Below are positions 5,657 through 61,700 of a stretch of DNA of 64,000 nucleotides, piece after piece. Origin of the DNA: Amoebophrya sp. A120 (lineage: Eukaryota > Protista > Dinoflagellata); assembly GCA_905178155.1 (NCBI GenBank), contig CAJINV010000016.1, positions 248,001-312,000 of the forward strand, given 5' to 3'. A program made the translations under genes and the position numbers. Below the pieces are notes generated by a model. It ran no database searches and had not been told where the DNA came from. It worked only from the letters and a program-made list of their open reading frames with translations. Each line of letters opens with the position of its first letter. Within the stretch, counting starts at the first letter, position 1.

Positions 5657-8600
5657 TTATGGAAACGCTTTCTCCTTACTTTCCTCCGCTCGCCGTGCCT
5701 GCTCCTTTTCGACCAACGCACGTAGTCTTGCGCGCTTCTCTTCGTCCGTCTCAATTCCGCCTTGCGAAGGAGCATTTGTTTCTCTACTTCCTGTTGATAA
5801 AATTTGAATTGGCGACATCATCTCGCTACCCCGTCGATCTCCATCACCGCTCGTTCCCGGAGTTGTCCTAAAACCAGAAGCAGCAACATGACGGGTTGTC
5901 ATACTCGGAGTAGACCCCTTGTAGTCCTTTCGCGCATGGGATCTCATCGTTTTCTGAAACGCGGTGATCAGTGTATTCTCCCTGCGCTTGTAGTGGTAGT
6001 ACTTCGACTTCGCTTCTAAGTAGGCGCGCAGAGCTTCCGGTAAAATTGCTTTTTTCCCCCCATCAATATCTCTCGCGGCTTTATTCGTCCCGTCCGAAGA
6101 GGAAGATACCACATACCTCGACATAGCATTGGCGTCTTGAAAAAGTTCCACGAACTGGAACTCCCATGAGTCCTCACTCGCCATCGCAGCGCGCACCCGG
6201 GCGTCGAAGTCCGACTCTTTTAGCCCAATATCGATGCGAACGTGCGACATCACGGCTGTTACCCAGTCGAAGAGGGAAAAGCCCGTTTCGATTTCGGTCC
6301 TTCTCCCGTCGTGTTGGACAGGAATCACGAGTTTCGGGCAACTTTCTTGCACCGTCTGCACCGCTTGCACCAAACGCGGAGCACGACCGTCAGGGCCTTC
6401 GGCGAGGGTGGTGTAGACGGGTTCTGCTACCTCCCGGTGTAGTTGCTCTCTGGCTTTGCCGCGCCTGCTCTTCTTCGGTTTTTTGTGTACCGCATCCTGT
6501 AGTTGCGACTCAGCCGCGCCGTCCGCTGGGGTCAGCAGTCGTCGGGCTGCTTCTGCTTCGTGCTGCTCTGGATTTTTTAAACGGGTCTCGATTTCCGTCT
6601 CTCTCAGCGCAAGGGCAGGCTCCTGCTTTCCCCTCGTAGTCCCCGGCGTGACAAAATCAATGCTGTAGTTGTCCTTGAACGCAAGAGGAGGTGCGGCGGG
6701 GGCTTCTATCCTGTGTAAAAGTATCGTACTCGTAGTAATCGCAGGCATGCATTACAAATCTCGATCCCAAGGCAAAACAGCATGACAAACTCCATTTCTC
6801 ATTCTAAGTAAATTTGTCATGCGATTTCTACTAGTACGATACTTTTGCAGTTCATAGCTTCCACTGTGCCACAACTTTGAAGACCAGGATACTTCCCCTT
6901 ACGCCCCGCAACTTCGTCCTGTGCGGCCGCCGCGTGTTGGAAGGCTTTCAGGAGGGTTTGTTTATCCAAATTAATGTTCTTCTCCAACTTTTTCCGAAGG
7001 CTTTCTACCGTGCGGAACGCTAACTCGTTTCGGGCTGGACTTGTTCCGGACAGTTGGACGTGGTTCTCCTTTAAGTTCTCTGAGATTTCATCACTAAAAA
7101 CAAGCAAACCGAGCAGCCAGTGGTATTCGGGCAGCCCCAGCCTGTCAAGGTACTCGCGCAACACATAGGACCGAGACGCGTCAAGACTCGCTTCGGCGGT
7201 CAGCGGTTTTGCGGCGCTCGCGACGCAGAAGGCACAAAAGTAGTGGTCGTGGAGATCGTGAGCTGCGCATGCCGCTTCATCTGCTCGAACACCGCTGGGA
7301 GGTCCTCTTTCCTGAGGCACAAACTGGACCACTTTCTTCCCGGTCGCGTCAAACGTGATGCGCTCGGGCGTTCCTCGAACAGGAGTTCTTGCGCCGGGCG
7401 GCGGGTAACTCCTACCGTCTGCGGCCCCGAACTGTTCCCCGGCAGCCGCCTCCTCGCGGAGCATCCCGTCCGCGCCTTCCAGCAGGTGCCGAGCTTCCCG
7501 TCCCCCGCCCGGATTGCTCCGTGCACCAGCGCCGGCAGTGGCTGCTGCTGTTCTCAAACTTTTCTCGTTGCAACAAAAGTAGGGTCGGCCGCAGGGGCAG
7601 GCGCTGCCAAGGGAGCTGCCGTAGTGGAATTTCCATTTGGATCCGGTCTCGGGGTCCGGCTGTTGCAATTTTTTACTACATGTGTACCGCTCCAAACCGC
7701 AGGCGCACAGGTCCGATCCGGTGGGCGTCTGGTTTAGCGCAAGCAGCGCGCTGCGCATACTCCGTTCCTCCGCAGCTCCACTCTGCTCTAGGAGTTTCAA
7801 CATTGCCAAAGCCTGTTGCTGTTCGTGTGCTACCCTCAGGTGATGCGCAGGAGCCGCAGCAGGGTCGCCGCTTGCAGGAGTTGTGAAAGAACGACCCCCG
7901 TGCGGAAGTTGAATCGTGGACGAAGGTCCAGCTGCGGGTACTAGTACAGAAGTCCGACTATTTTTATTCTGAATCATGACGTGGTGCAGCAAATGCCGCA
8001 GTGGGACAGAATAGCCAAAAACGCCACGTCCTCTCCCCGCCGCGGGTAGTTCTTGCTGCTGTTGTGCTGGTCCCGCTGAAGTAGATCCTGCTGGCGACAA
8101 AGCTTCGGCTGCTGTAGTTGACACCGGCAGCATGTCCGGGTGCCACTGGAAATTCAGCATTTCATCCTCATCCTCAACGCGGCCGGAAATAATTCTCCGC
8201 GAACCCTCGTAATATCCTCAGTAAAAACGTCCCCACCCCAGAGTTGTCATGCAAATCTGCATGCCAAAAAGGTTTCTCGTGCGGAGGCCCATGAGAAGCA
8301 TTTTCTAGGGGTGATTTGGAGTCTCTGATGCTCGAATCAGCACGATATGCTAGATCTGTGATGCTGTTGAGCTAGCTAAACAGGATCACACTATGGACCA
8401 AACCTGTCATGCGGAGCAACCAAATCTGGTTGATTTGTCTAGCACATTTCCCATCTTGACTCTGGTGTGGGGACGTTTTTACACAGGATACGTAATGCGC
8501 CATGTTCAGTCGCAAAGACTCCTCGTAGTAGTTTTGGAAGAGAAACGCCTGCTCCAGTAGATCTTCCGGGGGGCTGGAGGATCCACCGGAGGCAAAAAAA

Positions 8601-11600: not shown

Positions 11601-14600
11601 GTAGCAAATTGTTCCCCAAACACTGTAAAACGATCCGGAACCCGGTGACTCCTCATCAATTCCTCTACCGCCTCTGTGGACCATTCTTTTCCCCGCATGG
11701 TGCGCTGGTGCGGCGGCGGTGCAGTCCCTTCGTCTGCTTCGGAGACTGCTTCGTCGGCTTCGGAAAATGTTTCTGCTTCAGCTCCAGCACTTCTGGATAA
11801 AGGTAATGAAGCGGGAGTGGACGAGGGTCGTGGCCCCCGACGTCCACCTCTAGTAGTTCTAGTTTCGCTCGAGGTAGGCACGGCGGCAGCACTAGCACTG
11901 CTAACGTCGTCACCTCGGTCTCGTGCAACACTGTACCTCCCCACAACTTCTGGGTCCCGTACCTGCTCTACCCGGGGACGACTCAGAGAACCCCGAGGAG
12001 GGCTGCCTGGTAGTACTGCAGCCGTGTCTCGTCCGTGGAGTGCACACTCCTCCACGGAGATGGGGTCGTGTTGGTGTCCCTGTTGATAAAAAGAGCGCAC
12101 ATATTCACTTTCACCCTCATCTTCGCCGTCGCTGTCATCATCTGAATCCATCCAATCTGCCCAGGATGGCCTTGTCGACGGAATAGCCGCTAGCCCCAGA
12201 GCAAACGTTGGATTTTCGCCAGGCTCTATTTCGAAATGGTCTGACGCAGGAGCTTCAGGCTCGACTTGATGCCCGCCCACAGGAGCTGCTGATGCTGCAG
12301 GCGCAGCAGGAGCAGCAGCCGGGCCAACATAATCCCCCTTATGATGCACCGCACTGCTGGCCTCCGCCACGTCATCTAGTGTCTTCCAAAGTGCCGCACG
12401 ATTCCTCTTCGAAGAACTTCTTTTGTCGATCGAAGCCTCCGTCCGTCGTCCCCCTGCGCCACCCACAGGAGCGCTGGCGGTGCGCCTTTTGCTTTTAACG
12501 CGCAGCCGACTCTTTGATCGCCGGTCCTTCTCCCTCCCCGTGGTTCGCAGCGGCTGCGCCACAAGAGCTTTACCGCGGGTGGGAGACCTGCCGCGAGGTT
12601 GCGTTGTTCTCGTCTGTGGTCCTTGATGTGTGGATTTACGTCTTTGACCGCCAAGATGAACAGGTGGAGTCTCTACTTGCGGAGGAGCAGCAGGCGAGCT
12701 GCTCCTTCTTCTCCGCCGACTAGCGCGTCGCGGAGCTCCGCCGCCTTCTGAGGAGGCTGCGCGAGTAGCTTTACCGGTAGAAATCGATCTCGATTCCCTA
12801 CTTGTTGCCGATGATCGGTCTTCACCACTCCGGAAATAGCTTCGCGCGCCCTCCGAATTTCGATGCTGCGTCGCGGACGCGGTCGTGGCAGCTGCTGGTA
12901 GATCATTTTTTTCAACATCAGATGCCTCACTCGCACCATCTTCCATATCGCACGACGCTGTTGACCTCCGAAAGAATTTGCTGTCCCATTCCCCAAAGGG
13001 GCGAAACGTGGGCGGGATGCTGCTTGCCGCGACCCCAGTGGAGATTCCTCCGGAAGGATCCCACCCGTGCCTCGTCCGAGAATGCTCGGCCTGCCACTCC
13101 GGCCTCAGCGGCTGCGAAATTGGATAGTGCGGTAGATGTTGATGTTGAAGGGGCGCCTGCATAACTTCTCCAGTACTACTGGTAGCCATAGCATCGTCCC
13201 TACTTGTGTTGACCAACCACACAAACTGCCGCCATGGCATATAATCGGCCGCGTGGTCGGGACCAACTTCTGTTGGTCGGGAGCAACTGGCGCACGAACC
13301 CGCGGCCGAAAACGCTGGCGTGGTGGTGCCTGCAGGGGGCGCAGTAGGTGCAGCTCGCCCGGGACTGTATGGCACCTCTTCACCTGCTGCCCCTGCGGCG
13401 CTAGCAGCGGTCCTTCTTCGCAGCTTCAACTCCGTGTCATACCGCCCCGAAAACTCCTCCAGAACACTTTCTCGCACCTTCGTCATTTCCGCCGCCGCGC
13501 GCGGCCACAGTTTTTGTAACAACAGCCCCGTCTCCCACCTGGAAACCCGGGGAAGGAAAGTTCGCGCAAGTTGCTTCACCACTTTTGACCCACCAGTCTC
13601 GCCCCCGGCTCCCAGGGGCAGTACTTCTCCGCGCGGCGTCTGCATGGCTCCGTGAATAACGCCACTGACCGTGATGGAGTGGAGTAAAGCGGTTTTTTCT
13701 CGGGTGGTGCTCGCAAATAGCAATGGTTCCAGGACAAACGCGAAGAAGAGCTGCAGCAGGGCAGAAGTAGCGGCACTCTGCAAAATCGACTCACTCGACC
13801 ACCACGAGGGTGCGTGTGTGGCAGTCGGGGGCTGAGGAACTGTTTTGGGTCTGTGGCGATCGCGGAGAAATAGCAACATTTTTTGCACAACTTCTTCCCG
13901 GCCTGCTCGAGTCGTGTAGTCGCCCTCTAGAAGTCCACCTCCTCCCTCCACTCGCATTCCTGGCTGCGGCGTGGCTCCTGCTGCTGCGCTAGTTGAACAA
14001 GAACTTGTACCTGCGGGTGCAAGATATTTCTCGTAGAATCCGTGGATAAGGAGCAAAAGCTCAAAGGATTCTGGCGATGCTGTTCTTGCCACCATCAACC
14101 CAGAAGTAGTAGCCCTAGTCTGTGCAGCAATATTTGCCCTGCTGCGACGAGACGACGTAACTCTCTTTGGCTTTCTGTGTTCAAACAAGAACAACACTCC
14201 GTATTGGGAAAGCCACGTCCGCGCAGCGACGTACAGCTCTGCTAGGAGTCTGTGGTATCAAATGCAAAAATGTCTGGATCTGGAAGATTCCGGGATTTGT
14301 GATGCATATTTTGTGTGATCCATGACGCATGTAATGCATGGTCTAGCATCACAGATTTTTAGAGGGCTTCCTGATGCCTATTCCAATTCCGCATGAGAAA
14401 TGCCCTGTCCGCGTAACATAAACTGGAGTCCTGTTGTTGGTCATGCAATACAGATTTTTTCGGAATCCAAAGACAGCATGACAAGTTCTAATCTTCCAGA
14501 CCCAGACATTTTTGCATTTGATATGCGGCGGTTCGGAACGACGATATGCGGAGGAGCTACAGGAGTGGGAGTATCATGATGCGCAGTAGTACTAGCAGCT

Positions 14601-17243
14601 CTTTGTGTAGTACTAGCAGCGGCTGCACCTGCAGCATGCTCTTCGCTGTCGCCAGCATTCGACACGTTTGGAACAAAAGAAAGCGCTCCATCCTTCCAAG
14701 CAGGGTGCGTGAGGAAGAAATTCTCGAAGTTCTCGGCTGCAACAAATTTTGACTGGTCCGCCAGCTGCTGCTCCAGAACAGTTTCGCCTTGCACACGACC
14801 CTGCTGCGTCGAAGGAGCTAAGTCACCCCCTCTAGTACTTCTACTCCGCTCGATCGCATGCAGAGACAAAACTACTTCGTACTTCCTCAGTTGCCTGCTC
14901 CGCAACTTCGCGGGGACGAAATGCTTGGAGTAGCTATCCAGAAATGCACAGCCTTTGTGGTCCCGCAACTGCCCCAGTTTCTTCAGCATCCGCCGACGGA
15001 TGGAGGACTCGGTGGAGAGAGGGTCGACGACGGCTTTAGTGCCGATTATATCTTGCTTAAACACCGTGTAGATTAAGTGTGACACGTAGCTGTGCGCGGA
15101 TTTCCTGATCTTTTTTGGTCTCCTCAACATCCGGTCTCGATCTTCCATTTTTGGTGGCTGGCGTGTCAGAATTTCCTCCAAAGCGAAAACAAAGTCTCCG
15201 CTGTCAGTGTAGTAGCCAGTGACGGACCGTTTCAAAATTTCAGTAACCTTGGAGATTCGTCCAGATTCAGCAGCAGCAGCTCCCAGATTCAGCCAGGAGG
15301 GGAACGCTCCTGCCACCGGAGCGTGCTGTCGTTGCACCCGTTGGCGTTGCGATTGCGAAGCAGCAACACTATAATCTTCGTCTGCACCTCTTACAAGAAC
15401 CCCATTCTTGTCCACCGCAGCGCGCAAAGAGTCCAAAAACTTGAGAAACGATGCTTGCATGAGAAAGATCCGGGGGTCTAATTTCAGGTGGATCTTGTTC
15501 GTGTTTTCGTCCAGCTTGAGAGACTCCAAGATCGAGTCTGAGCGCTGCCGCCCCGCTTTTACCAAAACGGAGTGAAGTTTGTCCAACAGCTGGTAAATCC
15601 GGTGTTGTACGTGTCGAAGCTTCGACGCCGTGGTCCTCCCAGATGACTTTTTAGACCTTCGGGTGGAAATAAATACCTGCGCGGCCGCTCCCCGAACAGA
15701 CCGCCCCGCGCCGCCCCTTCGCATGTTCAGCATGTCGTTGGTGCTGGGCATCCGGGCGACAACGCTGGTGGCGTCAACACTAACACTTCTGGGAGCAGTA
15801 GAAGTCGAAGCACGCATGGCCTCGTACAACGCTGTCAGAACATCGGTCTTCTCTGTCTCGTGCTGCGCACCTCCAGGTCTACTTCCCACAGGACCACCTT
15901 GCGCCGCTCCATGATAACTGCTCGCTGCAGATGAAGATCCAACACCTGGTTGAAAACCCCCCGAGTAGAAGCTCTGCGCTGCTTCCCTTCCATCCGCGAC
16001 GACGTGGCTGAAAATTTCTTTATTCTCCAGATTCAGTTGCATGAAGATTTCGGAATCCATATCCTGAGTAAAAACGTCCCCACCCCATAGTCAAGATGGG
16101 GATTTTGCAACACAAACCTGGAAGTTTTGGGACTCATGCATCACAAGTTGCAGTCCGTAGTGTAGTGCAGGTTAGCAAGGGCAAACGCATCAAAAATCCA
16201 TCTGATTATCCTGGTTGCAGCATTACAAATGCCAAAACACGACTAGAAATTCCTCTCATGGAGATGCCCATTACAACTGTTCCTGTCATTGCAAATCTGC
16301 ATGACAACTCGGGGATGGGACGTTTTTACAAATGATAATCCAGGGCAGCCGAAACGGAAGTCGAGCTAGAAATCGTCATATTCTTCGGATCAGCCAAGTG
16401 CCCAAATTCCGCCTTGTGTTCGCGGAAGATATGGAAGCGTCAGGTTTGAAATCCTCAAAGTTGAAATAATCTGTAATGCATAAAATGCATGACCCGAGGT
16501 ATGTGTGTTGCAGAGCAGGCAAGTGAGGCCGATTGTAAGCCTGTTTGGGGTTACAGCTCGAGCTGCTAAAGTAACACGAGAAAATCACTCTTCTTTGCCT
16601 AAACAGCATGACAAACTGGATTTAGGGACCGCCGAAATTTGTCATGCCCCACTTGGAAACTGGGTTCCAACTGGCGTCCACTTTATGCATGACAAATTAT
16701 TTCAACTTTGTCGATTTCAACTACTCTGACACATCCATAGAAGAGCCAGGTGACGTAGAGCTCGATCAAGCCCTGCAGATCCTGGTCCGCCTGGGTTGGC
16801 AAAATCGCGGCTTCCACCTCGTCAACCGACCAGAGCGGAATCTTATTTCTCGGTGCATCTTGATCTTGCTGCTGGAGGTACTGTGCTGCTTCTACTTGTC
16901 GTGCTCCTGGTCCACCTTCACCGGGTTCGGACGAGGCCGGTGCTGGGGCACGACCACGCTGATCAACATGGGAAGACGCCTTTTTTTTTGATGTAAAACT
17001 ACCTCCCACACCAGCGGGCGGTCCCGTAGCGGGTAGGGGAACGCCGATCCGAGCCGCGGAGGCCGCAGCGGCGGCATACGTCGCTGGACGTCGGGGTGGA
17101 GACCTTCTTGCTGCTGCACTTGGAGATCGTGCAAAAGCTCCCGCACCTGCGGCCGCAGCCCCGAAGATGGGTACGTGGGGGAAGAAGGATGTCAGGAGCA
17201 AAACGGAAAATGTAAAGAGCAGCTGCACCATCACGCTGCACAT
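5657..17243 (-). CDS. Giant (~3,425 aa) low-complexity protein with a signal-peptide-like N-terminus; 6 exons split by 5 introners
   Basis: Removing 315, 283, 273, 283 and 155 nt (element plus one DR) joins ORFs 16683-17261, a short exon, 14441-16060, 8372-14197, 6817-8160 and 5657-6748 in frame. Junctions: TWLF|REHK, AALD|SEIF, NRR|RLLA, MAHY|EGSR, VEA|PAAP. Starts MCSVMVQLLFTFSVLLLTSFF. Confidence 0.85.
6707..6856. mobile_element. Introner family A (non-canonical intron)
   Basis: TIR tatNNNNtgyaaaagtatcgtact; DR gcttc/gcttc; removing 155 nt restores frame. Confidence 0.92.
8213..8490. mobile_element. Introner family C
   Basis: TIR tatcctNNgtaaaaacgtccccac; DR cgtaa/cgtaa; removing 283 nt restores frame. 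Confidence 0.92.
14256..14523. mobile_element. Introner family B
   Basis: TIR tatcaaatgcaaaaatgtctggRtctggaagatt; DR tgtgg/tgcgg; 273 nt, in frame. Confidence 0.92.
16060..16337. mobile_element. Introner family C (opposite orientation to 8213)
   Basis: TIR tatc..gtaaaaacgtccc; DR atcca/atcca; 283 nt, restores frame. Confidence 0.92.
16430..16739. mobile_element. Introner family D
   Basis: TIR tatgga..gtcag..ttgaaatc..caaagttgaaataat; DR gaaga/gaaga; 315 nt, in frame. Confidence 0.92.
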
Positions 17244-24060: not shown

Positions 24061-24147
24061 CTGTTGGACCGAATACCCGAACAAGAAAACGCATCAGAAA
24101 TTCGCCTCTGTAGGGTCGCCGACGCCGCCAGCGCCAGCGTTTGCTTT

Positions 24148-24726
24148 TTATAACTTGTGCCAAAATTCCTGGATTTGTTCGGCACTGTATTCGAGCGCCT
24201 GCAAAGCTGCTACCCGTCTCCGATCATCACTAGCAGACTGAGCACGCTCATCATGGACATCGACTACCCACGAGAAGGCAGAGTCGCCGCCGCTTTGAAA
24301 CTGGTCAAACGCTGCGCGAAGTTGAGCATGTTCAGGACCCGGCGCGCCCTCCTCTGATCCGCCCTTCTGTAAGCCGCTGCAGAAAGTTTTCTTGAGGAAT
24401 TTCGCCGCGTCTACAAGCACTCTCCGAAGCGCTTGCTTTTCGGCAGGCGCAGGCGAGTCGGTGATGGCGCTCCGTGCCATAGCAATGAAAGCGCGACGCT
24501 CCTTCGCCGCCGTCTCGCTAATCTTCTCCAGCACAGTTTGGGAGATTTTTTGTTCGACGAAGTTTAATACGTCGCGCGCCTGCCCATCCAATGTGCGGCG
24601 CACGACAATGAACGGGGCTACCCCTTGTTCTGTGGAGCTCCTGGAGGACACAGGCCCGCTGTCGGTTGTTAGCAATTCTTTTTTGGGCTGTCCAACTAAA
24701 ACTCCAGCTGCCGCGAACTTCTCCAA
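24148..24726 (-). CDS. Hypothetical helical protein, paralogous to the N-terminal part of 25726-29322
   Basis: LRRVLVDAAKFLK vs LRKVLVDAAHFLK; GDSAFSWVV vs GDSVYSRVV; VAALQALEYSA vs VEALQELEGSA. Start codon uncertain. Confidence 0.7.
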   Translation of the reverse strand: MEKFAAAGVLVGQPKKELLTTDSGPVSSRSSTEQGVAPFIVVRRTLDGQARDVLNFVEQKISQTVLEKISETAAKERRAFIAMARSAITDSPAPAEKQALRRVLVDAAKFLKKTFCSGLQKGGSEEGAPGPEHAQLRAAFDQFQSGGDSAFSWVVDVHDERAQSASDDRRRVAALQALEYSAEQIQEFWHKL

Positions 24727-25725
24727 CTTTGTATGCGCGGGAAACCGGGAAACGCTTCACCCCTGCGACCGACGAGACTGACAACACAGACTGACAGCCA
24801 ATCTCGACGGTGGGTTCACTGAGATGAGAAACGAACGCCGCGCATGGCCCCTGCGAGCCCGCCATGTCTGGGGCGGGGCTGCGCCGGCCGTCGGCGCGCA
24901 CCGCCGGCGCCCGCGCACCTTCCTGAAGCTGGCGCGCAATGGCGCCCCCCGCGCCCCCCTAATAGTTACGGGCCCGGGCGCGGGCCCCACGGGGCCCAAC
25001 TGGGCTCGTTGTTGTCCCATGGTTCGGGCCGCCCGTTGTCATCATTCCAAACCCAAAAAACCGCGGGCCCTTCGGGGGCACGCGCCTGTGAAGGCGGCTG
25101 CGCTTTCAGACACGCACGAAAGCCGAGGCCGTTGGCTATACCATGGCCCAGGCCCCCGCGTGCGCGTTGCGTGCAACGTCCTTCGCAGGTTGCCCGGGCT
25201 TTCTTCACTTTAGTCGCCGCGCGCGGCCCCCGCCGTCGAGCGATAGATAGGCCCGGGCGGCCCTCTATCCCAGGGCGGTCCGTCGATAGATAGTTCCGGC
25301 GGGCCATGGGCGTCGGGGGCGTGCATGGCCAATCTAGGGCCGGCCGCTGCCCCTTCCGTCTATCATTGATGGCTGGGCAAACAACGAAGGCCGCGGGCCT
25401 GCCAGAGCAGGCCGCGGCACGTCCTTTGTTTGCCATACACAAGCCGCGAAAATAAGAGTGACACAAGACAGGGGGGCGCGTTGTTCTCTTCTTGCTAGGC
25501 TTTCTGCCGTAAGGCGGCACCATAAGCGGTGCGCGGGCCCAACTGCCTTCCAAAATCCGGCACCAGTTTTTTTCTCATGCATTTTTTGAAAACCGGCGGG
25601 CGGCCAGCCGATCCGGCCGGGCGGCCATGTGCCAAAAAAGCCGCAAGCAGATCAAAAGAACAAGCCGCCCAGAAGCGTCCGGAGCCGAGTGCGTGGGGAA
25701 ATCGCGGGGCGGCGGCGCCACGGCA

Positions 25726-49000: not shown

Positions 49001-52000
49001 AAGTTCAGATTTGAAGATAACGCCGAGGAGGTGTTAGATCGTGCTCTAGTCGTGCCCCTACTTCGAGAGGGAGATAAAGACAACAAACTGGTACTAGACC
49101 GGGAGAGAAGACTGTTGGACTGCGCCAAAAGGTCATCTTCTTCTCCATCGGAGATGTGAGCATCGTTCTGACCGGCGCTTACTATTTCGTCCAGTCCAGT
49201 ACGATCATCTTCCATCTCCGCAACGTCTGACGAATCCTGCTGATCCGCTTCGCTCGCTGAATTCATCTCATCAGAGGGCGATGTAAGAATGTGCGTATCC
49301 AGCACCGCACCACGGTCTTCTGGTCTTTCAGACGGTGGAGTGAAGGAAGGCAGGCGGTGTAGCACTGCGTCATTGTCGTGTAGTAGTTCCATATTAGCAA
49401 GAGCTTCGTGCTCATCGTCGCCTAGAAGTGCGATTTCTTCAAACCCGGTCGCATCATCAGCTCCTGATGTCCGCAGAACATAATCGTACTCGTGGTCTCC
49501 GTCTCGCTGTGCTCGACGTGCATCGTTATAGTTCATCCGGACACCAGCGCCAACGTCTCCCATTTCCACGTCGCCCTCCTCCTGTTCCCCGACAGGCGAC
49601 GCTGACGGTGTTTCCCCGATTTCCGTTGTGCCCCTGCTCTCGGAGGTCGTCGCGGCAGGAGTCGTGGGCTTCGCGATCCTTGGCAGTAGTTGACCTTCAT
49701 CTTGCAGTAACTGTTCACTTTCTCCTTCTTGTTCCTCCTGCAGATCGTGCAGACGCGGTTGCTGGACTTCTACGTTGGAAAAATCAGCTGGTGAACAACT
49801 TCGGTGGTCCAGGTGGTCACAGTTTTCTCGCACAAGCACACTCTCTGTAGGAGGACCGAGCCGACCTGTGCTTGACGCGGCACCGCCGATAGAACGACCG
49901 GCAGCCATCTCCACATCGCCTGCTAGTTCAACTCGACGCGTACTATCTGGATAATTCTGCTCCTCGCCGTGTGGTTGTACTATGCTCCGTGGAACGTCAG
50001 TAGTCCAAAACCGCATTTCTTGCATCGCCGGAGCCGCACCTGCACTTACAGACGGAAGGGAGGAACCACCTGCCCCGGCAGCACCTGAACTAGTTCTGCC
50101 TGAGCCCCGACTTGATGTTCTGCCACTTGTCGCGCTGCAATCGTGCAGCCGCAAGTCCCCGCTGTTTTTCACCAAGAGGTAGAACAGCAGCGCAGCCGTC
50201 TCCTATGCAAAAACGTCCCCGTAATGCAAATCTGCATGCCGAAGATATCTCTCATGCGGAGCCCCATGGGAAGCATATCCATTTTCTAGCTGTGACGTTT
50301 CGAAATTTGTGATGCCCCAATCAGCGCGATGCGCTACGTCTGTGATGCTACTGCACTAGCTGAAGAGGATTACACTACGAGGCCAAGCTTGTCATGCGTA
50401 ATAGCCAAAGCGTGTTGATTTGTCTTGCAGATTTCCCAACTTGACGATGGGGTGGGGACGTTTTTACATATGATAAACCGCCGCCTCCTCCCCGATCGTG
50501 GAGACCAGGTCCATAATCGCCCGGTGCTGCACAAACGCCGCCACTGTCGACGTCGAGGGTTGCTTCGTAGTGCTTACAGTAGAAGTTCCACCAGCATTCA
50601 TTGTCATTGTGTTCGGAGCATTAGAAACGTTATTTGTCGTCGTGCTCGACGCGCTAGCTCCATTCCCGGCACTGTTCGGCGAAGCAGAACTACTTGCTGA
50701 CGCGTCTGTCGTTCTCCTTCCACGCCACGATTGCCTCCTCCTCCCAGGACCAGCAGCAGCAGCCCCAGCACTACCTCTGTTGTTCGCAGCCCTGTTTACA
50801 CCCCCACGAAGAAACCTCGGGACGACGGAAGGCGGAACCTCCATCCCATCGGCGTTCGCGAGTGTTCGCAGGTAGTCCAGCGTTATTCGATCATGGTCGG
50901 GGTCGAACCCGACGTACCGTTCTGCTTCGTGGTTTCGGCGGCGCAGACGCTGAATCCGGTTGCTCAGACGAGAAATCCGGGCACGCGGGGCACTGGTCGG
51001 TATCGGTTGCTGTGTAGATGAGGGGGTGTTGATCGGTTCTTCTACTTCATCTGTGGCTGTCGTACTAGGAAATAATGGTGGTGCAGCGTTTGGAGCACCT
51101 CCAGTGGGAGAAGCTGCAAGTGGTACTGCTTCGGATGCTGTCATTTCTTCGTCAACGAGCGGGAACAAAACAGCAGCGCGGTCTTGCAATTCGTGTGCGG
51201 TAGAAAAATCATGGTTGATTTCATCATGTTCGAGAGCTGCTGCTGCTCCAGAAGGAGCTGCCAGCAGCGTCTCGCTTTCAGCATCTGCCACGTCGAGAGT
51301 TTGAGTTGATCTGCTTGACGCGGCTTGTCCTTGTTCCGCAGCAGTTCGTAAAAATTCCTGCGGTACTAGGCCTATCCCAAACGGGGCTTCTGATTCTGTG
51401 GCGGGTGGCAGCACGTCGTGGTCATGTGAAGCAGCAACACCTGCTGCAACTCCAGCTACTCCACCACGACCCGGGCTCTGGTCCAGCGAAAGCCCCCGCA
51501 AGGCTGCGGCGGCAGACATGGGGGAGCAGGTGCTGTTTTCATCCAGAGCAAACAGAGACGACGTGGAAGACTTGTTACAGCGTATGCATTGCACAAGTAT
51601 CGTACTCGCACGAATGACAATCATGCATGACAAATTCCATTCCGAAAGAAAAATCAGCATGGCAGACTCCATTTTCGTTCTTGAAAAAATTTGCAATGCC
51701 ATTCATACTAGAACTAGTACGATACTTTTGCAATGCATACAGCGCAAGGTCGAGCAACTGCTCCCCGGTGTAGCTGTGCTGGCGCTGTCCGATACGGGGC
51801 TGGCAGCTGCAAAATCGTGATTTATGATGGAACTGGAGCTGCTACCACTAGAAGTCATTATCTTAGCTCCTGTGGTCCCATCTTCGCCAACAAGGTCGTC
51901 GTTTGAAATCTTCGAGTCGCTTTCTGTCTTCGCAGCACCTACAGCAGAAACATCCTCCAAACAACTGCCGGCCACTGTGCTGTTTTCATCGCGAGGTGCC

Positions 52001-55000
52001 TCGGGTTCTTCTTGTTGCGGCGACGTATCGGTACCTAAGTAGGAGGTTGCAGCAGCAGCACCATCAGCAACAGTAGCACCAGTAGAACTACAGGCAGCAG
52101 CTCCACCTGCAGCGAAAAGTCCGCTCCCACCAGAGATCCCCGACGAGGAAGCGCTGGCACTAGTACCAGCAGTACTACTCCCAGTACTGCCCTGCCGGTG
52201 GAAGTTGGTCTTCTGCAACAGTAGCCACGTCTGAAATTCCTGGTCTACGTGGTTTTTCAGGTTGTTCCAAAGAGATTCGCGCTCCCGTGGCGTGAAGGAT
52301 ATCGTGCGAGGACCACGATGATTGTGACTTTGAAGATTTCCGTCGTTTTCATGAAACAGTGCCAGCAAAGTGTCGATTTTCCGAATGTTCTATCAACAGA
52401 AAAAAAACCAATCCACTTTTTGCATGACAAACATAGAACTTGGTACGTGCTTTGCATGACAAATTGCATGTGGATGGGTGCTTTTTCCTGGATATGCTCA
52501 TCGGATTTTCCAAGAAGCACTGTCGCGGGCAAAGTTCCTGGTGCGTGCGCCACTCGCGGAGGGTCCACGAACAGGCCGCCGGTTTGGCTTGTGCTTGCGC
52601 TTTCGAGGCTGGCGGAAAGAGCTCGGCGGAAGGGGAGGGTGCAGCAGCTGCGTTGGAACCTGATTTTTACTGCGATCATTGCGAGTAGGAACGTAAAAAC
52701 CACACTCTATGGATCAGACGCAGATATCATGCGGCGAAGCCCTCGTCGAGCGGAAATCAGACAACTCAACGCAGAAGCCTCGTGTATGTTCATCTTCTGC
52801 AAAGCAGCAGCAGCAAAAAACCATATTTCAGTACCTCCTGGTCGCGCCACAGAAGAAGAAGAAGAAGCAGAAGAGGCTTCGCCCTGCTGCGGTCCACCCC
52901 CGTCGAAAGCCACTCCGTCTTCCGGCAGTCCTAACTCGAGAACTTCCTCCAATTTCAGCCATGTCCTGAGCTCAAACAGGCTCGGGAAAACCTCGCTTTT
53001 CGACCCGGTGCGGCAAAAGGGACAGCCGGTCTTCAACCCCCTGCCGCGGTCCTCATGGCTCGCGGCGCAGACGTTACAGAGGAAGTGGCCACAGGGGTAA
53101 ATGGCAACCTTTGGGACATCAAGGTCCGACACATTATGCTCAGCAGACTTGCTGCGACGATCGTAGTAGTTTATCCAGGAAAAAACACCCATCCCCATCC
53201 AATTTGTCATGCAAAACATGTATAAATTCCTTTGTTTGTCATGCAAAAAATGGATGGGGATGGGTGTTTTTTCCTGGATATAGTTTTTGTCTTTACTAGA
53301 CAGCGCATCAGTATTTTTGGACGACGACGTAGCAGCTCCGGTAGGAGTGCGACCTCCGGTGTTCGCTGCGCGACCATCTGCGTCTCGCTGTTCCACTACA
53401 TCGTCGCCGGCACAGGACGACAAACAGATTTGGCACTCAGTTTTCGCTTCAGTATGCACAGGAAATTTCCCGCACACGTACAAAAACAAAGAAATGCGGT
53501 CCCCGCATGACAAAACTGGACTTCGAATCTAGTGTAGCATGCCTAGTGTTACACTTCGAATAAGTGAAATTTGTGATGCATTTTGTACATGTACGGGAAA
53601 TTTGTCTTGCATATTCAGCCAACACAGACTCCCCATTGTAATCCATCCATTTCAGGGCGAAAAACAGCCGCAGCTCGTGCGACCGGAGCGGCCGATGAGG
53701 TGTGGTGCGGATATGCACTGCAAAAGCATCGTACTTGTACTAATCGCATTTATGCATTACAAATTTTTCTGTCAACGTCAAGTTAAATCCGCATTACAAA
53801 TTTCATTTCTCATGCTGAGGGAATTTGTCATGCGATTTATACTAGTACGATTATACTTTTGCAGTGCATAGCGGATTTTTCTCAGCCATCTCCTACTTCC
53901 TCTGTTTGGTTCTTGTTTGATCGCTGGTGTCAACATCCTTGTTCCTTTGATGTTCTCTGTCGTGCGTGAAAACCGCCTTTTTGAGTCGGGCTTTCGTCGT
54001 GGTTTTTTCTTGTCTCGTCTTGTGCAACTGCCATCGTCAACGTCGGGAACAAATCCCTGCAGCTGACTCACCCGAGAGGTGGACGACGGTGCATTTGTTG
54101 TTCCCCTCAGCGAAAGAACCTTGCTCTTCATGCCATCGACGGCGGAAGCTGCAGACGAGCATGAGGCTGGACAACCGCGTTGTGTCTGGCCCTGCAAGAT
54201 GGACGACGTTCCGCCTGCGGCACTGTCCATTGTGAGCTGCGTCGGGGCCCGTGCGAGGGTAGAGGACGAGGAGGAACTGGCTGTAGTGGGCAGCCCGTTT
54301 GAGGTTGACATCCCGCCCGACGACCTTCGGGGAAGCACGAGCCCATGTTCTGCATGATCGCCCGCGTCCCGTGGTGCAGCAGCATGACTGGCACCAGCAG
54401 GTCCCGATGATCCCGTTGCACAGCTGCCTAAGAGAGGCTCGTCTGTTATGGATCTGTCAGGATTGAAATCGTCAAGGTTGAAATGATTGGTCATGCATAA
54501 AATGCATAACGCGAAATACGTGTGTTGCAGAGCAGGCAAGGGAGGCCGATTGTAAGCCTGTTTGGAGTTAGAGCTCGAGCTGCTAAAGTAGCATGAGAAG
54601 AGCAGTCATCTTTGCCTAAACAGCATGACAAACTGTATCTAGGTATCACCAAAATTTGTCATGCGCCACTTGCAAACTGGGTTCTAACTGGCATCCATTT
54701 TATGCATCACAAACTATTTCAACTTTGACGATTTCAATCCTGACGCTTCCATATCTGCGGCAGTTACAGTAGAGGACAACAGTGGAACCGCAGCCGACGA
54801 GCAGCTACTGACGATACCACCCTTTCTCGCATCATTGTCCCGGTGCGAAGTAGAAGTAGACCTTGTTCCCGTCGTTCCACTCAAGAAATCGATGGATCGC
54901 GCCCCTGCTTCGTCAGCACTTTCGGATGCTTTTGCTGTTGACCTGCGAGCGTTACTTCCGGGCGAGGAGGGAAGAAAAGATGATCGGGAAGGCAGGGGTA

Positions 55001-55304
55001 GCAGCACTCGAGCTCGGCTAGATGAAGATGAGGGTTCTAGCGTCGGCCCGTTGTCCTGGTCTTCGATATTCAGGTAGGAGGCGGAGGCTGCACTAAAAGG
55101 GGCAAAATTGAAATAAATGACGGGGCTTATTGCGAACAAGCTGTGGAGCAAAAAGAGCAGAAGCTTGCCAGCTCGGGTTCGTCGTGGTCGAGGATGTGAG
55201 GTAGAAGTTGAAGGGTGTTTACCTTTAGGCAGGCTGGAGGGGACGAGCATGACAAAACTGGAACGGGAAAACAAAACCGAAAAAGGAACGGGCAGGTGGG
55301 CCAT
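46044..55304 (-). CDS. ~2,390-aa putative membrane RING-finger (C3HC4-type) protein; 9 introners plus one inferred GT-AG intron
   Basis: Removing 312, 164, 166, 114, 175, 109, 162, 282, 267 and 328 nt gives one frame. CQIC...PCGHFLCNVC...CPFCR is a RING-HC pattern. Hydrophobic N-terminal segment (LLLFLLHSLFAISPVIYF) and Cys-rich hydrophobic segments near the C-terminus. Confidence 0.8.
46185..46507. mobile_element. Introner family D (opposite orientation to 16430 and 54447)
   Basis: TIR tatgggagtgtcagga.cgaaatcg.caaagttga; DR tggtc/cggtc; 328 nt, restores frame. Confidence 0.92.
47176..47437. mobile_element. Introner family B (opposite orientation to 14256 and 58399)
   Basis: TIR tat....tgyaaaaatgtctgggtctggaaga; DR gcgat/gcgat; 267 nt, in frame. 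Confidence 0.92.
50199..50475. mobile_element. Introner family C (left terminus TCT instead of TAT)
   Basis: tctcctatgcaaaaacgtcccc ... ggggacgtttttacatatgata; DR agccg/aaccg; 282 nt, in frame. Confidence 0.85.
51583..51739. mobile_element. Introner family A
   Basis: TIR tatgcattgca.aagtatcgtact; DR cagcg/cagcg; 162 nt, in frame. Confidence 0.92.
52391..52494. mobile_element. Introner family E (opposite orientation to 53172)
   Basis: tatcaacagaaaaaaaaccaatccac ... gtggatgggtgctttttcctggata; DR tgttc/tgctc; 109 nt, gives ENPMS|IRKID. Confidence 0.85.
52660..52834 (-). other. Probable canonical GT-AG intron (175 nt)
   Basis: AG|GTACTG ... AAAATCAG|GT. It removes the in-frame TAG at 52707-52709 and supplies the needed frame change (RPGG|SNAAAAP). 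Confidence 0.6.
53172..53280. mobile_element. Introner family E; 3n and stop-free, inside the RING loop
   Basis: Perfect TIR of about 30 bp tatccaggaaaaaacacccatccccatcca; DR tagtt/tagtt; 114 nt. Confidence 0.92.
53453..53613. mobile_element. Introner family G
   Basis: tatgcacaggaaatttcccgcacacgtacaaaa ... ttttgtacatgtacgggaaatttgtcttgcata; DR ttcag/ttcag; 166 nt, restores frame. Confidence 0.92.
53712..53870. mobile_element. Introner family A
   Basis: TIR tatgcactgcaaaag..tcgtact.gta; DR gcgga/gcgga; 164 nt, restores frame. Confidence 0.92.
54447..54753. mobile_element. Introner family D
   Basis: TIR tatgga...gtcaggattgaaatcgtcaa.gttgaaat; DR tctgt/tctgc; 312 nt, in frame. Confidence 0.92.
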
Positions 55305-55786
55305 ATCTTTCTCTTCCTTATTCAGGTGGCCCTGGCCTCGCAGATGATGATGGACGATTAGGATCACGAGATGAAAATAGAGGACACATCGTGAACAAAA
55401 ATGCCGCTACTTCGTGTGGTATACCAACTATCATCGCTGAAGAACCGGTAACCCAGCTGTTGCCGGCCGCTTTCGCTTAAACACTGGTTTACAAAACAGG
55501 GCTACGTCGTCCTTCGCTCTCCCGCCAAAACACGAGGACGAGAGCAATCGAAATAAAATCAAAACCCCTCGGAGCTGCGGCTGACTCCGTTCAAAGATCA
55601 TGGTCGCGGGGCCAGCGAGTATAGAAGGACGCCGCCTGGCCGGGTATTAAGAGCGTAAGCTTAATGATGTCTTTTGGTATCAACTGTATCTGAGCATGTT
55701 TCATCAGTTCTTCATATCGTGTGTCTCGCGTTCCGTCGGAAAGAATTTCCTTCTGTCTTGTTCAGTGCTTCTGCTTCGACCAATCG

Positions 55787-58700
55787 TCACATACTGACCA
55801 ACCCCGGTCCCCGCATTCGCTTCTCCTCCTCTTCCTCAAACACAACTTTACAATCGCCAAACTTGCGTCGCAAATTTGCTACCCGTAGCATAGAATCTCC
55901 GCACAGACGTCGTGATTCTTGCAAGTGCAATGAGAGAAGTGAACCGTCAGAATAGCCAGTTGCACCATCATCTTGCGGTTCTCCACTCTGCGAGGCAGGG
56001 TTTGGACGACCACCAGGAACAGCACCTCGTTTTGTATCCGGCAGTAGCACGACCTCCGTTCCATCGAAATCCCGGCAATACCGCAACTGTTCCTCTTCCG
56101 GAATGATGATCACGTGTTCAGGCACAGAGGGTGCAACTACAGATGCAGTGCCTGCTCTACTTGGTGACCACACGGCATCCTCTTCCGCTCCTCGCCCCAC
56201 AGGTCTCGTCTCATTCACAGGCCTGCCGTCGCTGGCGCTTGCTGCAATTTGTTTGTTCTTCCCAGACGACCTGGTCACCCGATCAGAAACTACATCAGCG
56301 CCGCCCAACATTCCCAATTTCTTATACCGCTGCTCTGCTTTTTTCTTCGAGCAGAATCTTATTCCGCTCCTGTTCATCTGTGTTCTTGATGAAGATGACT
56401 TATGTCCCCAATAATTTGGTGCAACTGCCCCGTCTTTGTGCTTCTCACTATCAATGCCACCCTCAGTGGCATCTGCTGGAGTAAAGTTATGTTGTCGAAG
56501 ATGCGCAGGAGCACTAGTACCCGTTGCGGTGTTGAATGAGCACTTAGCAACAATGCCGCTTGTTCTATGCATCCGGGCAAAGTTCCCAACTCCGCCATAC
56601 CGCTCGACTATCCTCCGTATTCGCGCCCGAACCAAATGCCTAATTGTGGTTGCTACCGGATCTGTGTTGCCATGAAGATCCTGCGAAGATGCGTTAGAAG
56701 TTCTCGCACTTAGCACCCTCCCGCTCACCGGATCTGCGAAAACCTCCCTCGACAAAAAGGACCCCTGACTCAGCAACGCGTGCCTGCGAGTCCGCAGCAT
56801 GCGTGCTTTCGCGGCAGCAGATGGGCCGGTGGAAAAAACCGCTTCCACGTCTTCCGCAGAGGCGATGACAGGGGCGGATTGGAGACTACTTGTCGTCAAG
56901 TTTGCAGTTGATTTACTGCCTGTGCCTGCTGTAGTTCCTGTTGCTGACATTAATACCCCTGCGCCGTTGGTCGTGGTCGTGTTCAGCCGCGCTTCCAACT
57001 TCTTGGCTTGGATTTCTCGGTCGGACTTCGCCTGTCTCCTCTATCCAAGAAAAAAACAAAAAGTGTGTACGTGTAACGGTATAGGAAAGGCAGCATCACA
57101 AATAATTCGCTTTGCATTTTTTACAGAAAAAAGCTGTCATGCATAGCTACGCGCATGAAAACACGTATGAAACGTGGCTATGACGCACTTCACGCATGAC
57201 AGGCGTAAAAACGGTATTTTTGCATTTTTTGCATCACAAACTTCCAATTTACACAGTTCTTTTGTCTTGGATATCTTCAGCTGTTCGATCAACGCTTTTC
57301 GGGATTGTACCATGTACTGGGAATTGTTTAATGGATTAGGATATCAAATGTAAAAATGTCTGGGTCTGGAAGAATTCATGTTTGTCATGCTTGTCCGGCA
57401 TGACTGTTAAATCTGTCATGCACGTTACCCAAGAGCTCCGCTTTTCTGTGATGCAGTAGTAGTAGTGACCATTTGACTCCTGGCGGGTTGGCGTTAGAAC
57501 AGATCTAGCCTCTGCCAATACCTGGGCGTTAGAACAGATGTAGCCTCTGCCAATACCCCTAGGTGGATACCCGATCCACTTCCTAACTGCAGAAGCGCAG
57601 TTTGTCATGCAGAATAGGCAACACCTAGGAGCTCAGAAACTTGTCATGCTGAGCCAGCATTTGTAGCCTCATCATGAGACGCCACCCAGCATCACAGGCT
57701 TCCAGACCCAGACATATTTGCATTTGATATAGGATTTGAAGATGAACTACCACTGTTAAAATCCGCACCAGATGAAGCAGCAAGACCTGCTCCTGTCGTC
57801 CCTTGTTCAACAGAAGATCCATCGTGAGATATTGTGAGGAAAAATCCCTCCTCCCCACATTGAAAACGCATCCGTCTGAAAATCTGTGATGCGGATTTGT
57901 GCCCACAAATCCTGTCTGTCTTGCACGCAGGCAAATCCAGAGGATCCGCCGCACTATGCAGGCGGTTTGTGATGCTGTTGGGCCTACACTATCGACGTTT
58001 TTCACGCTAGGAGCCTACGCCAAAACATCGCGGCTCAAGCTTGGCATATACCTGCAGTTTCCTCTACTGCAAGACAAATGTGATTTGTGTACTGAAATCC
58101 AGCATCAGAAACTTCTTTTTGATATGGGGTGGGGAGATTTTTCCTTTTGATATGAGAAAGCTCCCCCTCGTCCCCATCAAATTCCTTCCCCGAGAACGGG
58201 TTCGGGGAATCGCAATCGTGCGTCAGAAACGCCTCCAGTTTCTTCCCCAATAAGTCTTTCGTCTCTCGCCATTTCTCGATGCCAAAATGCGTCCGCAAGC
58301 AGCTCTGGATGTGGTTCTCTCGGAAGGGCGTGCCGGCTTCGTACTTGGTTGCCGCGAGAAATTTCACGTACTTCTTCACTTGGTTCTCCCGCTTCTCCTA
58401 TCAACTGTAAAAATGTCTGGGTCTGGAAGATTGCCGGGTTTGTCATGCACATTTTGCATGACTCCTCAAGTCTGTGATGCATGCCCTAGCATCACAGATT
58501 TTTAGAGGGCTTCCTGATGCCTATTCCGCATGACAAATGCTCTTTCCGTGTTGCAAAATTTGGACTCTCTGTGCTGCTCATGCAATACAGATTTTTTTAG
58601 AATCCAAAATCAGCATGACAAGTTGGATTCTTCCAGACCCAGACATTTTTACATTTGATATCTCCCGGTCCGAAGGGGTCAGGTCGGCGAGCTTTTGTTT

Positions 58701-61700
58701 CATGGAGACATTTATCCTGTGCAAAAGTATCGTACTCGTATAAATGCTGGTCTTGCATTACAAATTTCATTGTCAAGGCAAATCAGCATTACAAATTTTA
58801 TTTCTCATGCTGAGAAAATAATTTGTAATGCATTTATACGAGTACGATACTTTTGCAGTTCATAACATTGCTCGTCGGTGTACTACTAGGACCGTTGTCT
58901 TTGTCTCGCAGCTGCTGGTCCTTTCGCGCACCTCCACGACGTGTCTGGCGGTGGTTTTTCGCCGTTCTTGGCGATGGTACGTTACTGAAGATATCTTCAT
59001 TCTCGTGCTCTTCGCTGCTTTCACAATTTTCGGCAGAAATCGAAGGTTTTTCTGTGCCCGTTGCTGTCATCATCATCTGCTCGGTCGAATCATAATCCTT
59101 CGTCTCCGCCCGGGCGGCCAGAGACACGGCAGACAATTCCTCTGCCGCAGTTAATTTTTCAGTTTTTGCAGATCCACCTCCTCCGCTCATCAACAACTTC
59201 CTCGTCACATCCCCGCTCAAACTCGCGACCTTGACTTTCCTATGAAAGCCTCAGAATGGAAATCCTCAAAGTGGAAAAGGAAATAATTTGTGATGCATGA
59301 AATGCAAGGCAAAAAAGACTGTATTGCAAAGGACACATCAATGGAGGCCGACTATTGTCCTGCTAGGGGTGAAGAATTGGGCTGCTAATTAGCACGACAG
59401 AAGGGCACCCCTTTGCCTAACTAGCATAACAGACACGTTTTGAGTGCCCGGGAAATTTGTCATGCGCCGACTACAAATGACGCTTCAACTGGAGTCGTTT
59501 TTTTGCATTACAAATTACCAGCCATGCTCCGGCTACCGCCGGAGCGCAAGGCTGTTGGGCCGGGGCAAGACCGTGCGCCGATTGGACCACAACACCACGG
59601 GCCTGCGGACAACGCAACATGTTGGAGTCCTGCCGCCTGTTTGCGCCGCGCCAACCCGCAGGACCACTTGCGCGCCTCCCGCGCCTTTGGGCGCTCTGCG
59701 CAGGGAGCAGCTGCAAAGAACACCGTGGGCGAACAGAAGCCGCCCGGCGCGAGAGGGTAGCGCGAGAGGGTGGCGCGAGAGGGTGGCGCGAGGGGGTGCG
59801 CGAGAGGGTGGCACGGAAAGACGCCGAACAAAACAAGTCCGTAAGGGCCTGCAGTGCGAGATATGTGTAGCGTCATGCGGATGCGCGCCTATTTCTTTCT
59901 GTTTTTACCTCCTCGCAGACCTCTCGCAGACCCTCCTTTTGACCTCTTTTGGGGGTCCCTGCTAATAGTCCGGCTATACTCGCGGGTAGAGGTCGACCGA
60001 GGTGGCCGAGAGGTGGCCAAGAGGGTCCGCGGGAGGTCGCCCCTTATTCGCGCAACCTCTCGGCACCTCTGTCCACCTCTCGCCTGCCCTCTTTTCTACC
60101 TCTCGGCACCCTCCGAGGCGCTTAGCGGCCCTAAAGGGCGAGCGGTTCGGCGGGCTATACTCGCGCCACCTCTCGCGCACCCTCTCGAACTGCCTCCCGC
60201 GCCACCTCTCCACCTCTGTCGACCTCTTTTTGACCTCTTTTGACCTCTTTTTTACCTCCCGGCCACCTCTCGTCTACCCTCTCTAGACCAATATTTTCGC
60301 ATGAATATAATTTAGACCGGAAAAACGGCCGGAGTACATGTTTTGTCGCGCTTCGCCACTGTCTGGCATTGCTTTTGTTTCGCTTTGGGGGCTGCCCGGG
60401 GCCCGACTAAGATGCCCGGCCCAGGGACCGCGCCGCGCCAGGCGCCGGGCTGCGCGTTCTTTGTTGCCAAGGGTCCGGGATAGATTTCCCGGCCCGGATG
60501 TCGCCCACGGGGGGAAGGCAACGATAGTCCGCGGGGTCTTCCCTTTCCGGCTGCTATCGGCGCGGGGCCCCGCGACGGCATGGGGTGCGGCAGCCGCGCA
60601 TGCATTTGCGCGCCCCTGCGCCGAATATGGTCGCGGGGGCGCAGAAAAAGGAGCGCCCGGCTTCGGCACTTTCGGGGGCGAGGGCCCTCCCCCCGCGAGA
60701 GGGGGCCAAAATGGGGGCCCGAAGTTGGCCCAATTCGGGCCACTTCTTGGGGAGGGGGTAAAATGGGCTCAATCTGGGCCATTTTGCCCCCCCCCTGTAG
60801 CATCGGGGGAAGGCCATTTTTTGCCCCCCCCTAAAAAAGAGGCCGAATTGGCCCAACTTTTGCCTTCTTTTTACCCCCCCCCGGAGGGGGGGTGGTAGGT
60901 TGCCCCCAAGAGGGATTCTTCACGGCCCCTGCCTCAATCCCCCTGAAGAGGCCAGGCCCCCCAGGAAATCTCGCGGCCGGGCTGCTGGTTGCAGTTGTGC
61001 GGGCTCCGAGGTTGGCGCTCCACCACCATGCCGTGCCTGCCGCACGCCCCCGGTGCGAACCATGGCCGGGGGGGCCCAGCGAGGCGCGACCGCCTTGCCG
61101 CCCCTTCCCTCTTCCGGGCGGGCGCCGCCCGCCTGCGGTCATTGAAGCACATAGCAGCAGGCGGCTACCCGCCGGATGACTTGCCCCATCGCCCGGCCGC
61201 ACCATCGCGCCCCCCCTAGTCGCTATGCCCGCGACCCGCGTGCCAACTGGTTGCACGAAAAAACATGTACTTCGGCCGTTTTTCTGGTCTAAATAATAGA
61301 TAGTAATTTCCACTTTGAGGATTTCCAACCTGAGGCTTTCATATTTCCCCGGCCGGGTTTTCAGCGCTTTCTCGGCCACCCACCGGTTGTACCCGTTTCT
61401 TTCCAAGTACACTGCGAGGTCGGCGTTTTTGAAAAGGTTCAAAAAATCAGTACTGTCTATGTCGATATGAACCGCAGATCTCCCGTGTTTGTTCTGCTCC
61501 TCACAGTGTTTCGAAAACTGCTCTACCAGGGAGGCAACCTTCTCCCGATCTTCTTCCGTCACCGGTTGTTCTTCGAAGTCGTAGCGGATAAACGCTTGCA
61601 ACCGCTTCCCCAGAATCTGTTTGATTTCCGTGTGCTTGTGCAGTTTAAACTTTTTCCCCAGCTGCTGCTCGACCTCTCGGACGGTGGCGCGGGACCCGCC

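Follow-up and report, generated by a model that had tools for sequence, protein, structure and literature searches.

The elements and their internal motif

In this work, the whole window, a stretch of 64,000 nucleotides from contig CAJINV010000016.1 of Amoebophrya sp. A120, was analysed for 26 elements bounded by terminal inverted repeats (TIRs) and for a motif, GCAT[GCT]ACAAA, that recurs inside them at set distances. The elements (W1 to W26) have TAT at the start and ATA at the end, and most of them lie between direct repeats of 5 bp; W6, W11 and W14 were added manually, from TIR shape and RNA joints. There are 50 exact matches to the motif in the window (29 on the plus and 21 on the minus strand), as against 0.49 ± 0.76 in 100 shuffles, and 48 of them lie inside the elements, which occupy 8,297 bp or 13% of the window (5.79 matches per kb). 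The remaining 55.7 kb holds two (0.036 per kb), which corresponds to an enrichment of about 160-fold and agrees with an earlier note on this DNA, in which the motif was called rare in exons. These two matches lie at 36962 and 55247, and no TIR was seen around either. The same note ascribed several copies to every TIR family; the looser form GCAT[GCT]ACA is indeed present in 26 of 26 elements, but the strict 10-mer occurs at least twice in only 16, once in eight and not at all in two. In a larger sample with elements from outside the window, the site reads GCA[T/a]BA[C/g]ARRT, in which A is avoided at position 5.

The outside sample comprises at least 158 loci (704 kb, partly overlapping) of one public assembly, found by the group C TIR. 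It yielded 355 further elements, while shuffled sequence gave 0. GCATBACA is present in 343 of the 355, and when the wider pattern is allowed, 374 of 375 short elements have a site. The design favours group C, which makes up 189 of 380 elements, and counts were weighted by family or by group. A full-length best match was obtained for 21 window elements, 18 of which match the outside set at 70–95% identity.

The TIRs were earlier described as unrelated between families, which does not hold, because the start TAT[GC] is common to all, and in most of them AAA occupies positions 11–13; it is at about positions 15–25 that they differ. Across 710 ends, for which TAT was required by the caller, positions 11–13 are A at 0.86, 0.91 and 0.94, with groups D and E deviating. 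The outer TIR (4–10) is freely variable, its arms often mismatched, and the inner TIR (15–25) is near-frozen within a group and differs between groups; on internal branches they evolve at 0.75 and 0.08 times the interior rate, respectively. When flanks were examined for repeats of 2–10 bp without asking for one, an exact 5-bp repeat was found in 201 of 258 TIR pairs, a 4-bp repeat in two and a repeat of 6 bp or more in none. Empty paralogous sites, found for 4 of 345 elements after a self-match (L025) was dropped, contain a single copy of the 5-bp repeat. Thus, the repeat length together with the single copy at empty sites points to a true target site duplication (TSD), and the 5-bp target shows no sequence preference.

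With TIRs, a fixed TSD, empty sites, many copies and no coding capacity, the elements have the anatomy of miniature inverted-repeat transposable elements (MITEs), or non-autonomous TIR elements. The best explanation is that they are non-coding TIR DNA transposons with a 5-bp TSD that are removed from mRNA as introns. In sequence, their ends match the published signature of A120 introners, which are described with inverted repeats of TAT, seven variable nucleotides and AAA, direct repeats of 3–5 nt, a length of about 240 nt and non-canonical ends (PMC7789003). The inverted repeat signature, the short direct repeats and the non-GT-AG removal reported there are all found in the window elements. 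The internal motif and its spacing are not described in the parts of that paper covered here, and the splice position relative to the hairpin is left open in them.

Spacing of the motif copies

Copies in the same orientation prefer a distance of 31 bp, with a weight of 35.4 versus 2.4 expected, and this peak is seen in 13 of 23 fine TIR groups; further direct peaks lie at 32 and 18 bp. Convergent pairs peak at 33 bp (25.3 versus 1.4 expected; further peaks at 15, 64 and 46 bp) and divergent pairs at 49 bp (12.9 versus 1.2 expected; further peaks at 17–18 and 60 bp). The direct and convergent peaks were reached by 0 of 500 shuffles under either weighting. The distances add up (15 + 18 = 33, 18 + 31 = 49 and 33 + 31 = 64), so these distances represent cassettes.

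Among the coarse TIR groups, 8 of 9 have direct distances of 31–32 bp at more than twice the expectation, as against 0 of 9 at 20–22 and at 41–43 bp and 1 of 9 at 52–53 bp. The rule between motifs is therefore one fixed distance of three helical turns and no periodic series. A periodicity of about 10.5 bp, which the earlier note proposed to look for, did not hold for motif-to-motif distances, because single peaks dominate the periodogram, and a period of 16 bp fits equally well. Helical phasing is retained in another place, namely as a one-turn step between the element end and the first site. The first outward site lies 31–33 bp from the end in 102 ends and 39–44 bp in 306, but 34–38 bp in only 19, and there are almost no sites within 30 bp of an element end. 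At the level of groups this phasing has R 0.56 at 10.5 bp (p 0.005, n 23), with values collapsed per side of 37, and it rests on the two peaks. The element length modulo 10.5 gave no signal. A 12/23-like rule between the two ends was rejected, since symmetric and asymmetric elements both occur.

All four same-strand pairs quoted in the earlier note were found, although they represent only two families (6749/6780 with 58755/58786, and 52422/52454 with 53203/53235) and the 25 short elements of the window contain 12 strict pairs on the same strand, these four included. On the window alone, a spacing of 31–32 bp would be insufficiently supported, and it is the outside set that establishes it. The first of the two families is group A, in which W1 (6707..6856, 150 bp, TSD gcttc) has sites 43> 74> 107<, the number being the position in the element and the sign the strand, so that a direct distance of 31 bp is followed by a convergent one of 33 bp. 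W25 (58713..58864, 152 bp) has sites 43> 74> 89< 110<, and W15 (51583..51739) is a further member of 157 bp. The sister copy W19 (53712..53870, 159 bp; sites 43> 80> 95< 113<) has a spacing of 37 bp instead (53754/53791), followed by 15 and 18 bp. The second family is group F, with W16 (52391..52494, 104 bp) and W17 (53172..53280, 109 bp), each with two sites 32 bp apart, on the plus strand in W16 and on the minus strand in W17. As had been noted, these smallest elements are a TIR plus two motifs. In W18 (53453..53613, group G, 161 bp; sites 53> 118< 149<) the last site lies inside the TIR, at position 4, and 31 bp from its neighbour. The possibility that the motif is a plain copy of TIR positions 4–13 received only partial support. 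At the best of 21 inward offsets, these positions agree with the motif at 6–8 of 10 bases in groups A, C and G, and at 3–4.4 in groups D, E, B2, N2 and N3, versus 3.5 in flanks; moreover, they evolve at 0.75 times the interior rate, unlike the motif.

The sequence between two sites is also shared, since a profile of the 31-bp spacer scores above shuffles in 12 of 13 groups that were left out of its training (p<0.05). Judged from this similarity, homology of the 31-bp cassette between groups is probable, unless the footprint is longer than the motif. The shared cassettes, together with inverted pairs at 15, 33 and 49 bp that could pair, are what would be expected if the motifs were arms of hairpins in RNA or single-stranded DNA, or had been left over passively from a single ancestral element. 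We regard this as very unlikely. The fifth base of inverted pairs agrees little above expectation (0.49 versus 0.41, 0.53 versus 0.43 and 0.40 versus 0.46 expected), their outer flanks pair at 0.27–0.34, which is near chance, here without a formal test, so that no stem extends outward, and direct repeats give the strongest peak. Motif columns conserved well beyond their neighbours refute passive descent. Common descent as the only explanation thus fails because conservation exceeds it, yet descent of the cassettes contributes, as the shared spacer indicates.

Strand use and splicing

The strand symmetry claimed earlier is borne out. In the 125 of 380 elements that could be oriented, with the strand inferred from open frames, there are 229 sense and 283 antisense sites; 11 elements are sense-only, 11 antisense-only and 103 have sites on both strands. 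At least 13 window elements (W10 to W17 and W21 to W25) are skipped together with exactly 5 bp, and with non-GT-AG ends, in contigs assembled from one sample (runs X3 and X4) and guessed to be RNA. A single contig lacks W16, W17 and also a canonical GT-AG intron of 175 bp on the minus strand (52660..52834), whereas the DNA-like run X1 retains W16. This intron fixes the strand of the gene hosting W16 and W17, in which the sites of W16 are antisense to the mRNA and those of W17 sense. On the mRNA strand of W16 the best site score is -9.3, versus 16–20 on the other strand. The raw RNA runs X9–X11 matched element copies only and no exons.

An RNA splicing signal, either a branch point or a site for a splicing factor, would fit a motif that is A-rich and confined to spliced elements, and 103 of the 125 oriented elements would offer it whichever strand is transcribed. 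We consider it highly improbable, because W16, spliced without a sense-strand site, already contradicts it, and because 11 of the 125 are antisense-only, the distance to the 3' splice site is not fixed and the canonical intron at 52660..52834 is motif-free. Equal strand use, the antisense-only splicing of W16 and the little covariation together make a branch-point or hairpin role unlikely, and the earlier argument against a branch point stands.

The position of the cut is constant. All 13 joints (45268–58864) are compatible with an intron that takes in 1 nt ahead of TAT and 4 nt beyond ATA. This register was derived from TSDs with differing copies and is pinned by W12 (46185..46507, group D, 323 bp), whose mismatched TSD gives the lower bound, and by W14 (50199..50475, group B, 277 bp), which gives the upper bound, and it is narrowed by W11 (45656..45960, group C, 305 bp), W16 and W21 (57042..57273, group H, 232 bp). 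W14 has TCT instead of TAT at its left end; this mutated terminal triplet lies at its 3' end in the mRNA, and its excision is still precise. The other skipped elements are W10 (45273..45598, C-like, 326 bp, single site 267>), W13 (47176..47437) and W24 (58399..58660), both of group C and 262 bp and in opposite orientation, W22 (57342..57729, group C, 388 bp; sites 40< 71< 104< 260< 299< 348>) and W23 (57830..58152, group B2, 323 bp). The register is independent of dinucleotides, and it predicts N-T donors and free acceptors. The N-TATS start presumably resembles a GTATG-type donor with its first base free, so that the element ends alone may suffice for splicing. In Table S4 of PMC7789003, as far as covered, all nine predominant A120 splice pairs begin with N-T, as the register predicts.

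In minimum free energy folds, 21–25 of the initial 25 nt are paired with the opposite end in 8 of 8 elements. An alternative to donor-like ends, by analogy, would be TIR-triggered excision as in SOS splicing, in which a TIR transposon is excised from mRNA via pairing of its terminal repeats; in the parts covered, that system is from an animal and apparently independent of the spliceosome (PMC12779559).

Conservation of the motif and a possible mechanism

In each of 16 alignments, of which 11 are of families and 5 of overlapping groups, the divergence of motif columns is 0.31–0.66 of that in the interior. For three large families (109, 52 and 52 copies), trees show changes at the five core positions at 0.11 times the interior rate on internal branches and at 0.35 times on terminal ones (Fisher p about 1e-7). 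The terminal core changes amount to 0.022–0.028 per site per copy by arithmetic from tree counts, close to the TSD decay, which is 0.027 (mismatches in 26 of 213 copies) to 0.042. In the large families, core singletons are not depleted (45 versus 40.7 expected), whereas shared alleles are (18 versus 94.7). In these alignments the pattern fits what is expected if intact sites are required for spread but not for persistence. In a related assembly, L019 2625-6080 contains C-5 cytosine DNA methylase domains, and the CpG contexts of the elements are only mildly more variable.

We hypothesize, and consider it reasonably probable, that the motif array is a strand-indifferent binding platform in double-stranded DNA for a single transposition protein common to all families. 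Pairs of sites 31–32 bp apart would be occupied, on the same side of the helix, by a multimeric transposase or a DNA-binding protein accessory to it, with an anchor 31–33 or 39–44 bp from the end and the cassettes of 33, 15, 18 and 49 bp farther in. The bound protein would bring the TAT ends together, and copies that lose sites would no longer spread but would remain spliced. Splicing itself would likely be guided by the ends (the TIR stem, the donor-like N|TATS start and the cut 4 nt past ATA) and not by the motif. From the TA..TA ends and the 5-bp duplication we infer an enzyme of the IS3/IS481/integrase-like DDE clan. Of the shared cis-code for one trans-acting factor proposed earlier, a code read in double-stranded DNA is supported, and a single factor binding to it would be the step beyond.

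Several observations weigh against this hypothesis. With weighting by group, the divergent peak falls short of significance (p 0.136), and the likeness of the 31-bp spacer across groups means that the groups are not independent inventions. The evidence for splicing is from the assembled contigs of one sample, of guessed RNA nature. In small families core singletons are depleted (29 versus 64.4), and between nearest-neighbour pairs the motif/interior ratio is 0.54–0.59 even at identities of 95% or more (15/570 versus 67/1379; 10 pairs). Both results also fit selection after insertion; they can reflect unsampled relatives, yet they leave room for selection at the level of the host. The inner TIR (15–25) is as constrained as the motif but group-specific, so that several group-specific enzymes are possible. 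Farhat et al. (PMC7789003), in the parts covered, report no transposase in A120 and argue against mobilisation of its introners by a transposase. In this work, a Pfam search found no transposase or integrase in 24 open reading frames (ORFs) of the window and 71 of the outside loci, a sequence well under 1% of the genome of published size, and none of four long candidates was an autonomous element.

On the other hand, a host DNA- or chromatin-binding factor could read the array, mark the element and license its co-transcriptional excision, alone or besides aiding movement. The same strand symmetry and helical geometry would be expected, elements of both orientations are spliced, the motif/interior ratio stays at about 0.55 in the closest pairs, and U1 snRNA was not detected in the genus Amoebophrya. 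The same-site duplicates W7 and W8 also differ at 0 of 30 motif versus 5 of 155 interior positions, which is not significant. Such a factor is unlikely in our judgement, because core changes are tolerated three times more on terminal than on internal branches, at about the rate of TSD decay, core singletons are not depleted in large families and W10 is spliced with one site; redundancy among 3–6 sites could nevertheless mask weak selection. Going further, it is conceivable, though rather doubtful, that a single DNA-binding machine kept by the host, in place of separate transposases for the families, reads the geometric code, mobilises introners of differing inner TIRs in trans and also flags them for excision in the fixed register.

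Comparison with known systems

Among the A120 introners, family 38 is likewise a TIR DNA element with a 5-bp TSD and TA/TA termini that acts as an intron, but it is about 810 bp long and has Copia/Gypsy-like coding remnants, unlike the window elements; for most of the remaining A120 TIR families, the rows covered give the class as 'Unknown' (PMC12130899). Short internal repeats besides the TIR are bound by the transposase in the Lemi1/Emigrant MITE, cooperatively for Lemi1 (PMC1636448), and in the hAT element Herves (PMC3143072), and in the passages covered they are proposed to limit cross-mobilisation. The motif copies described here are likewise repeated, conserved and positioned relative to the ends. 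The motifs of Lemi1 and Herves are each confined to a single family, whereas here at least nine TIR groups share the motif and its set of distances, and binding is a prediction.

By their ends, the nearest relatives are IS3EU/GingerRoot, IS481EU and the TDD elements, each of which fails in one defining feature in the passages covered. IS3EU/GingerRoot shares the TA..TA termini but has a 6-bp TSD versus 5 bp here (PMC10045372, PMC6839031, PMC2836005). The termini TNT..AYA of IS481EU fit, whereas its TSD is about 4, 15 or 25 bp. Ginger1 and Ginger2-TDD have TGTNR termini versus TAT[GC] here, although the 5-bp TSD of TDD-4/5 agrees. The absence of a preferred target sequence is a further feature in common with these integrase-like transposons. 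In these passages, neither IS3EU/GingerRoot, IS481EU nor Ginger2/TDD joins TAT..ATA with a 5-bp TSD, and no subterminal motif is mentioned. An Rfam search gave 0 matches, and viral_contigs gave 0 matches to the group C TIR. Eight matches of viral_contigs to the 31–32-bp motif pair were taken as chance, none lying within a TAT..ATA element with a TSD. In the literature covered, which includes 14 supplements of PMC12130899 but not the figures, no description of the motif or its spacing was found.

Other features of the window

The remaining elements include W2 (8213..8490), which has looser sites only (31< 110< 143< 191<), and W4 (16060..16337; sites 48> 79> 161> 240>), both of group B and 278 bp. 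Group C is represented by W3 (14256..14523, 268 bp; sites 41< 91> 136> 190> 221>) and W9 (40942..41182, 241 bp; sites 70< 104< 163<), with a C-like element of 352 bp without a clean TSD, W6 (38781..39132; sites 44< 144< 313>). To group D belong W5 (16430..16739, 310 bp; sites 41< 177> 209< 258>) and W20 (54447..54753, 307 bp; sites 41< 145> 177> 209< 258>). W7 (39618..39852, group E, 235 bp; sites 91> 139< 186>) was copied to W8 (40485..40719) by a duplication of the gene segment, so W8 is no independent insertion. W26 (59241..61343) is a 1.1-kb group D element with motifs confined to its first 280 bp, and nested in it is a motif-free TIR element of about 1 kb (about 60306–61298). The same 1.1-kb subfamily also occurs in the outside sample, at L022 505-1608 (81% identical); its interior is repetitive and rich in GC, and it lacks a real ORF.

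The host gene of W16–W18 (52710–53528) encodes a RING finger (PF13920, E 2.7e-06). The region 24000–38000 is GC-rich (58–65%) and almost free of elements, with many ORFs of 200–750 aa and no Pfam match. It includes a 1.2-kb palindromic element inside an ORF (26641–27860), motif-free, with TIRs of about 95 bp, internal tandem repeats and an apparent 8-bp flanking repeat; by anatomy it is a candidate Mutator-like element, the label being taken from the row fam65 of the published A120 table. An AT-rich foldback at 35591–36020 has arms of about 290 bp that are 84% identical, contains short tandem repeats and is also motif-free.

Significance

The introner invasion of Amoebophrya is among the largest known, and neither the mobiliser of the introners nor the route of their splicing was settled in the genome paper. 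The elements and subterminal repeats as such were already known, and the new part is that intron-forming elements of at least nine TIR groups have a motif and a geometry in common. Motif and geometry regroup the 1,954 published families into one likely superfamily, and the shared motif argues for a common trans-acting protein, for whose isolation the 109-bp element, as wild type and as motif and spacing mutants, is a defined bait. The fixed register N|TAT...ATA+4 would explain the 'variable' splice sites and correct the intron annotation. If a single host-kept machine does act in this way, it would mean that one system both makes and removes introns, for tens of thousands of introners, in a lineage without detected U1.

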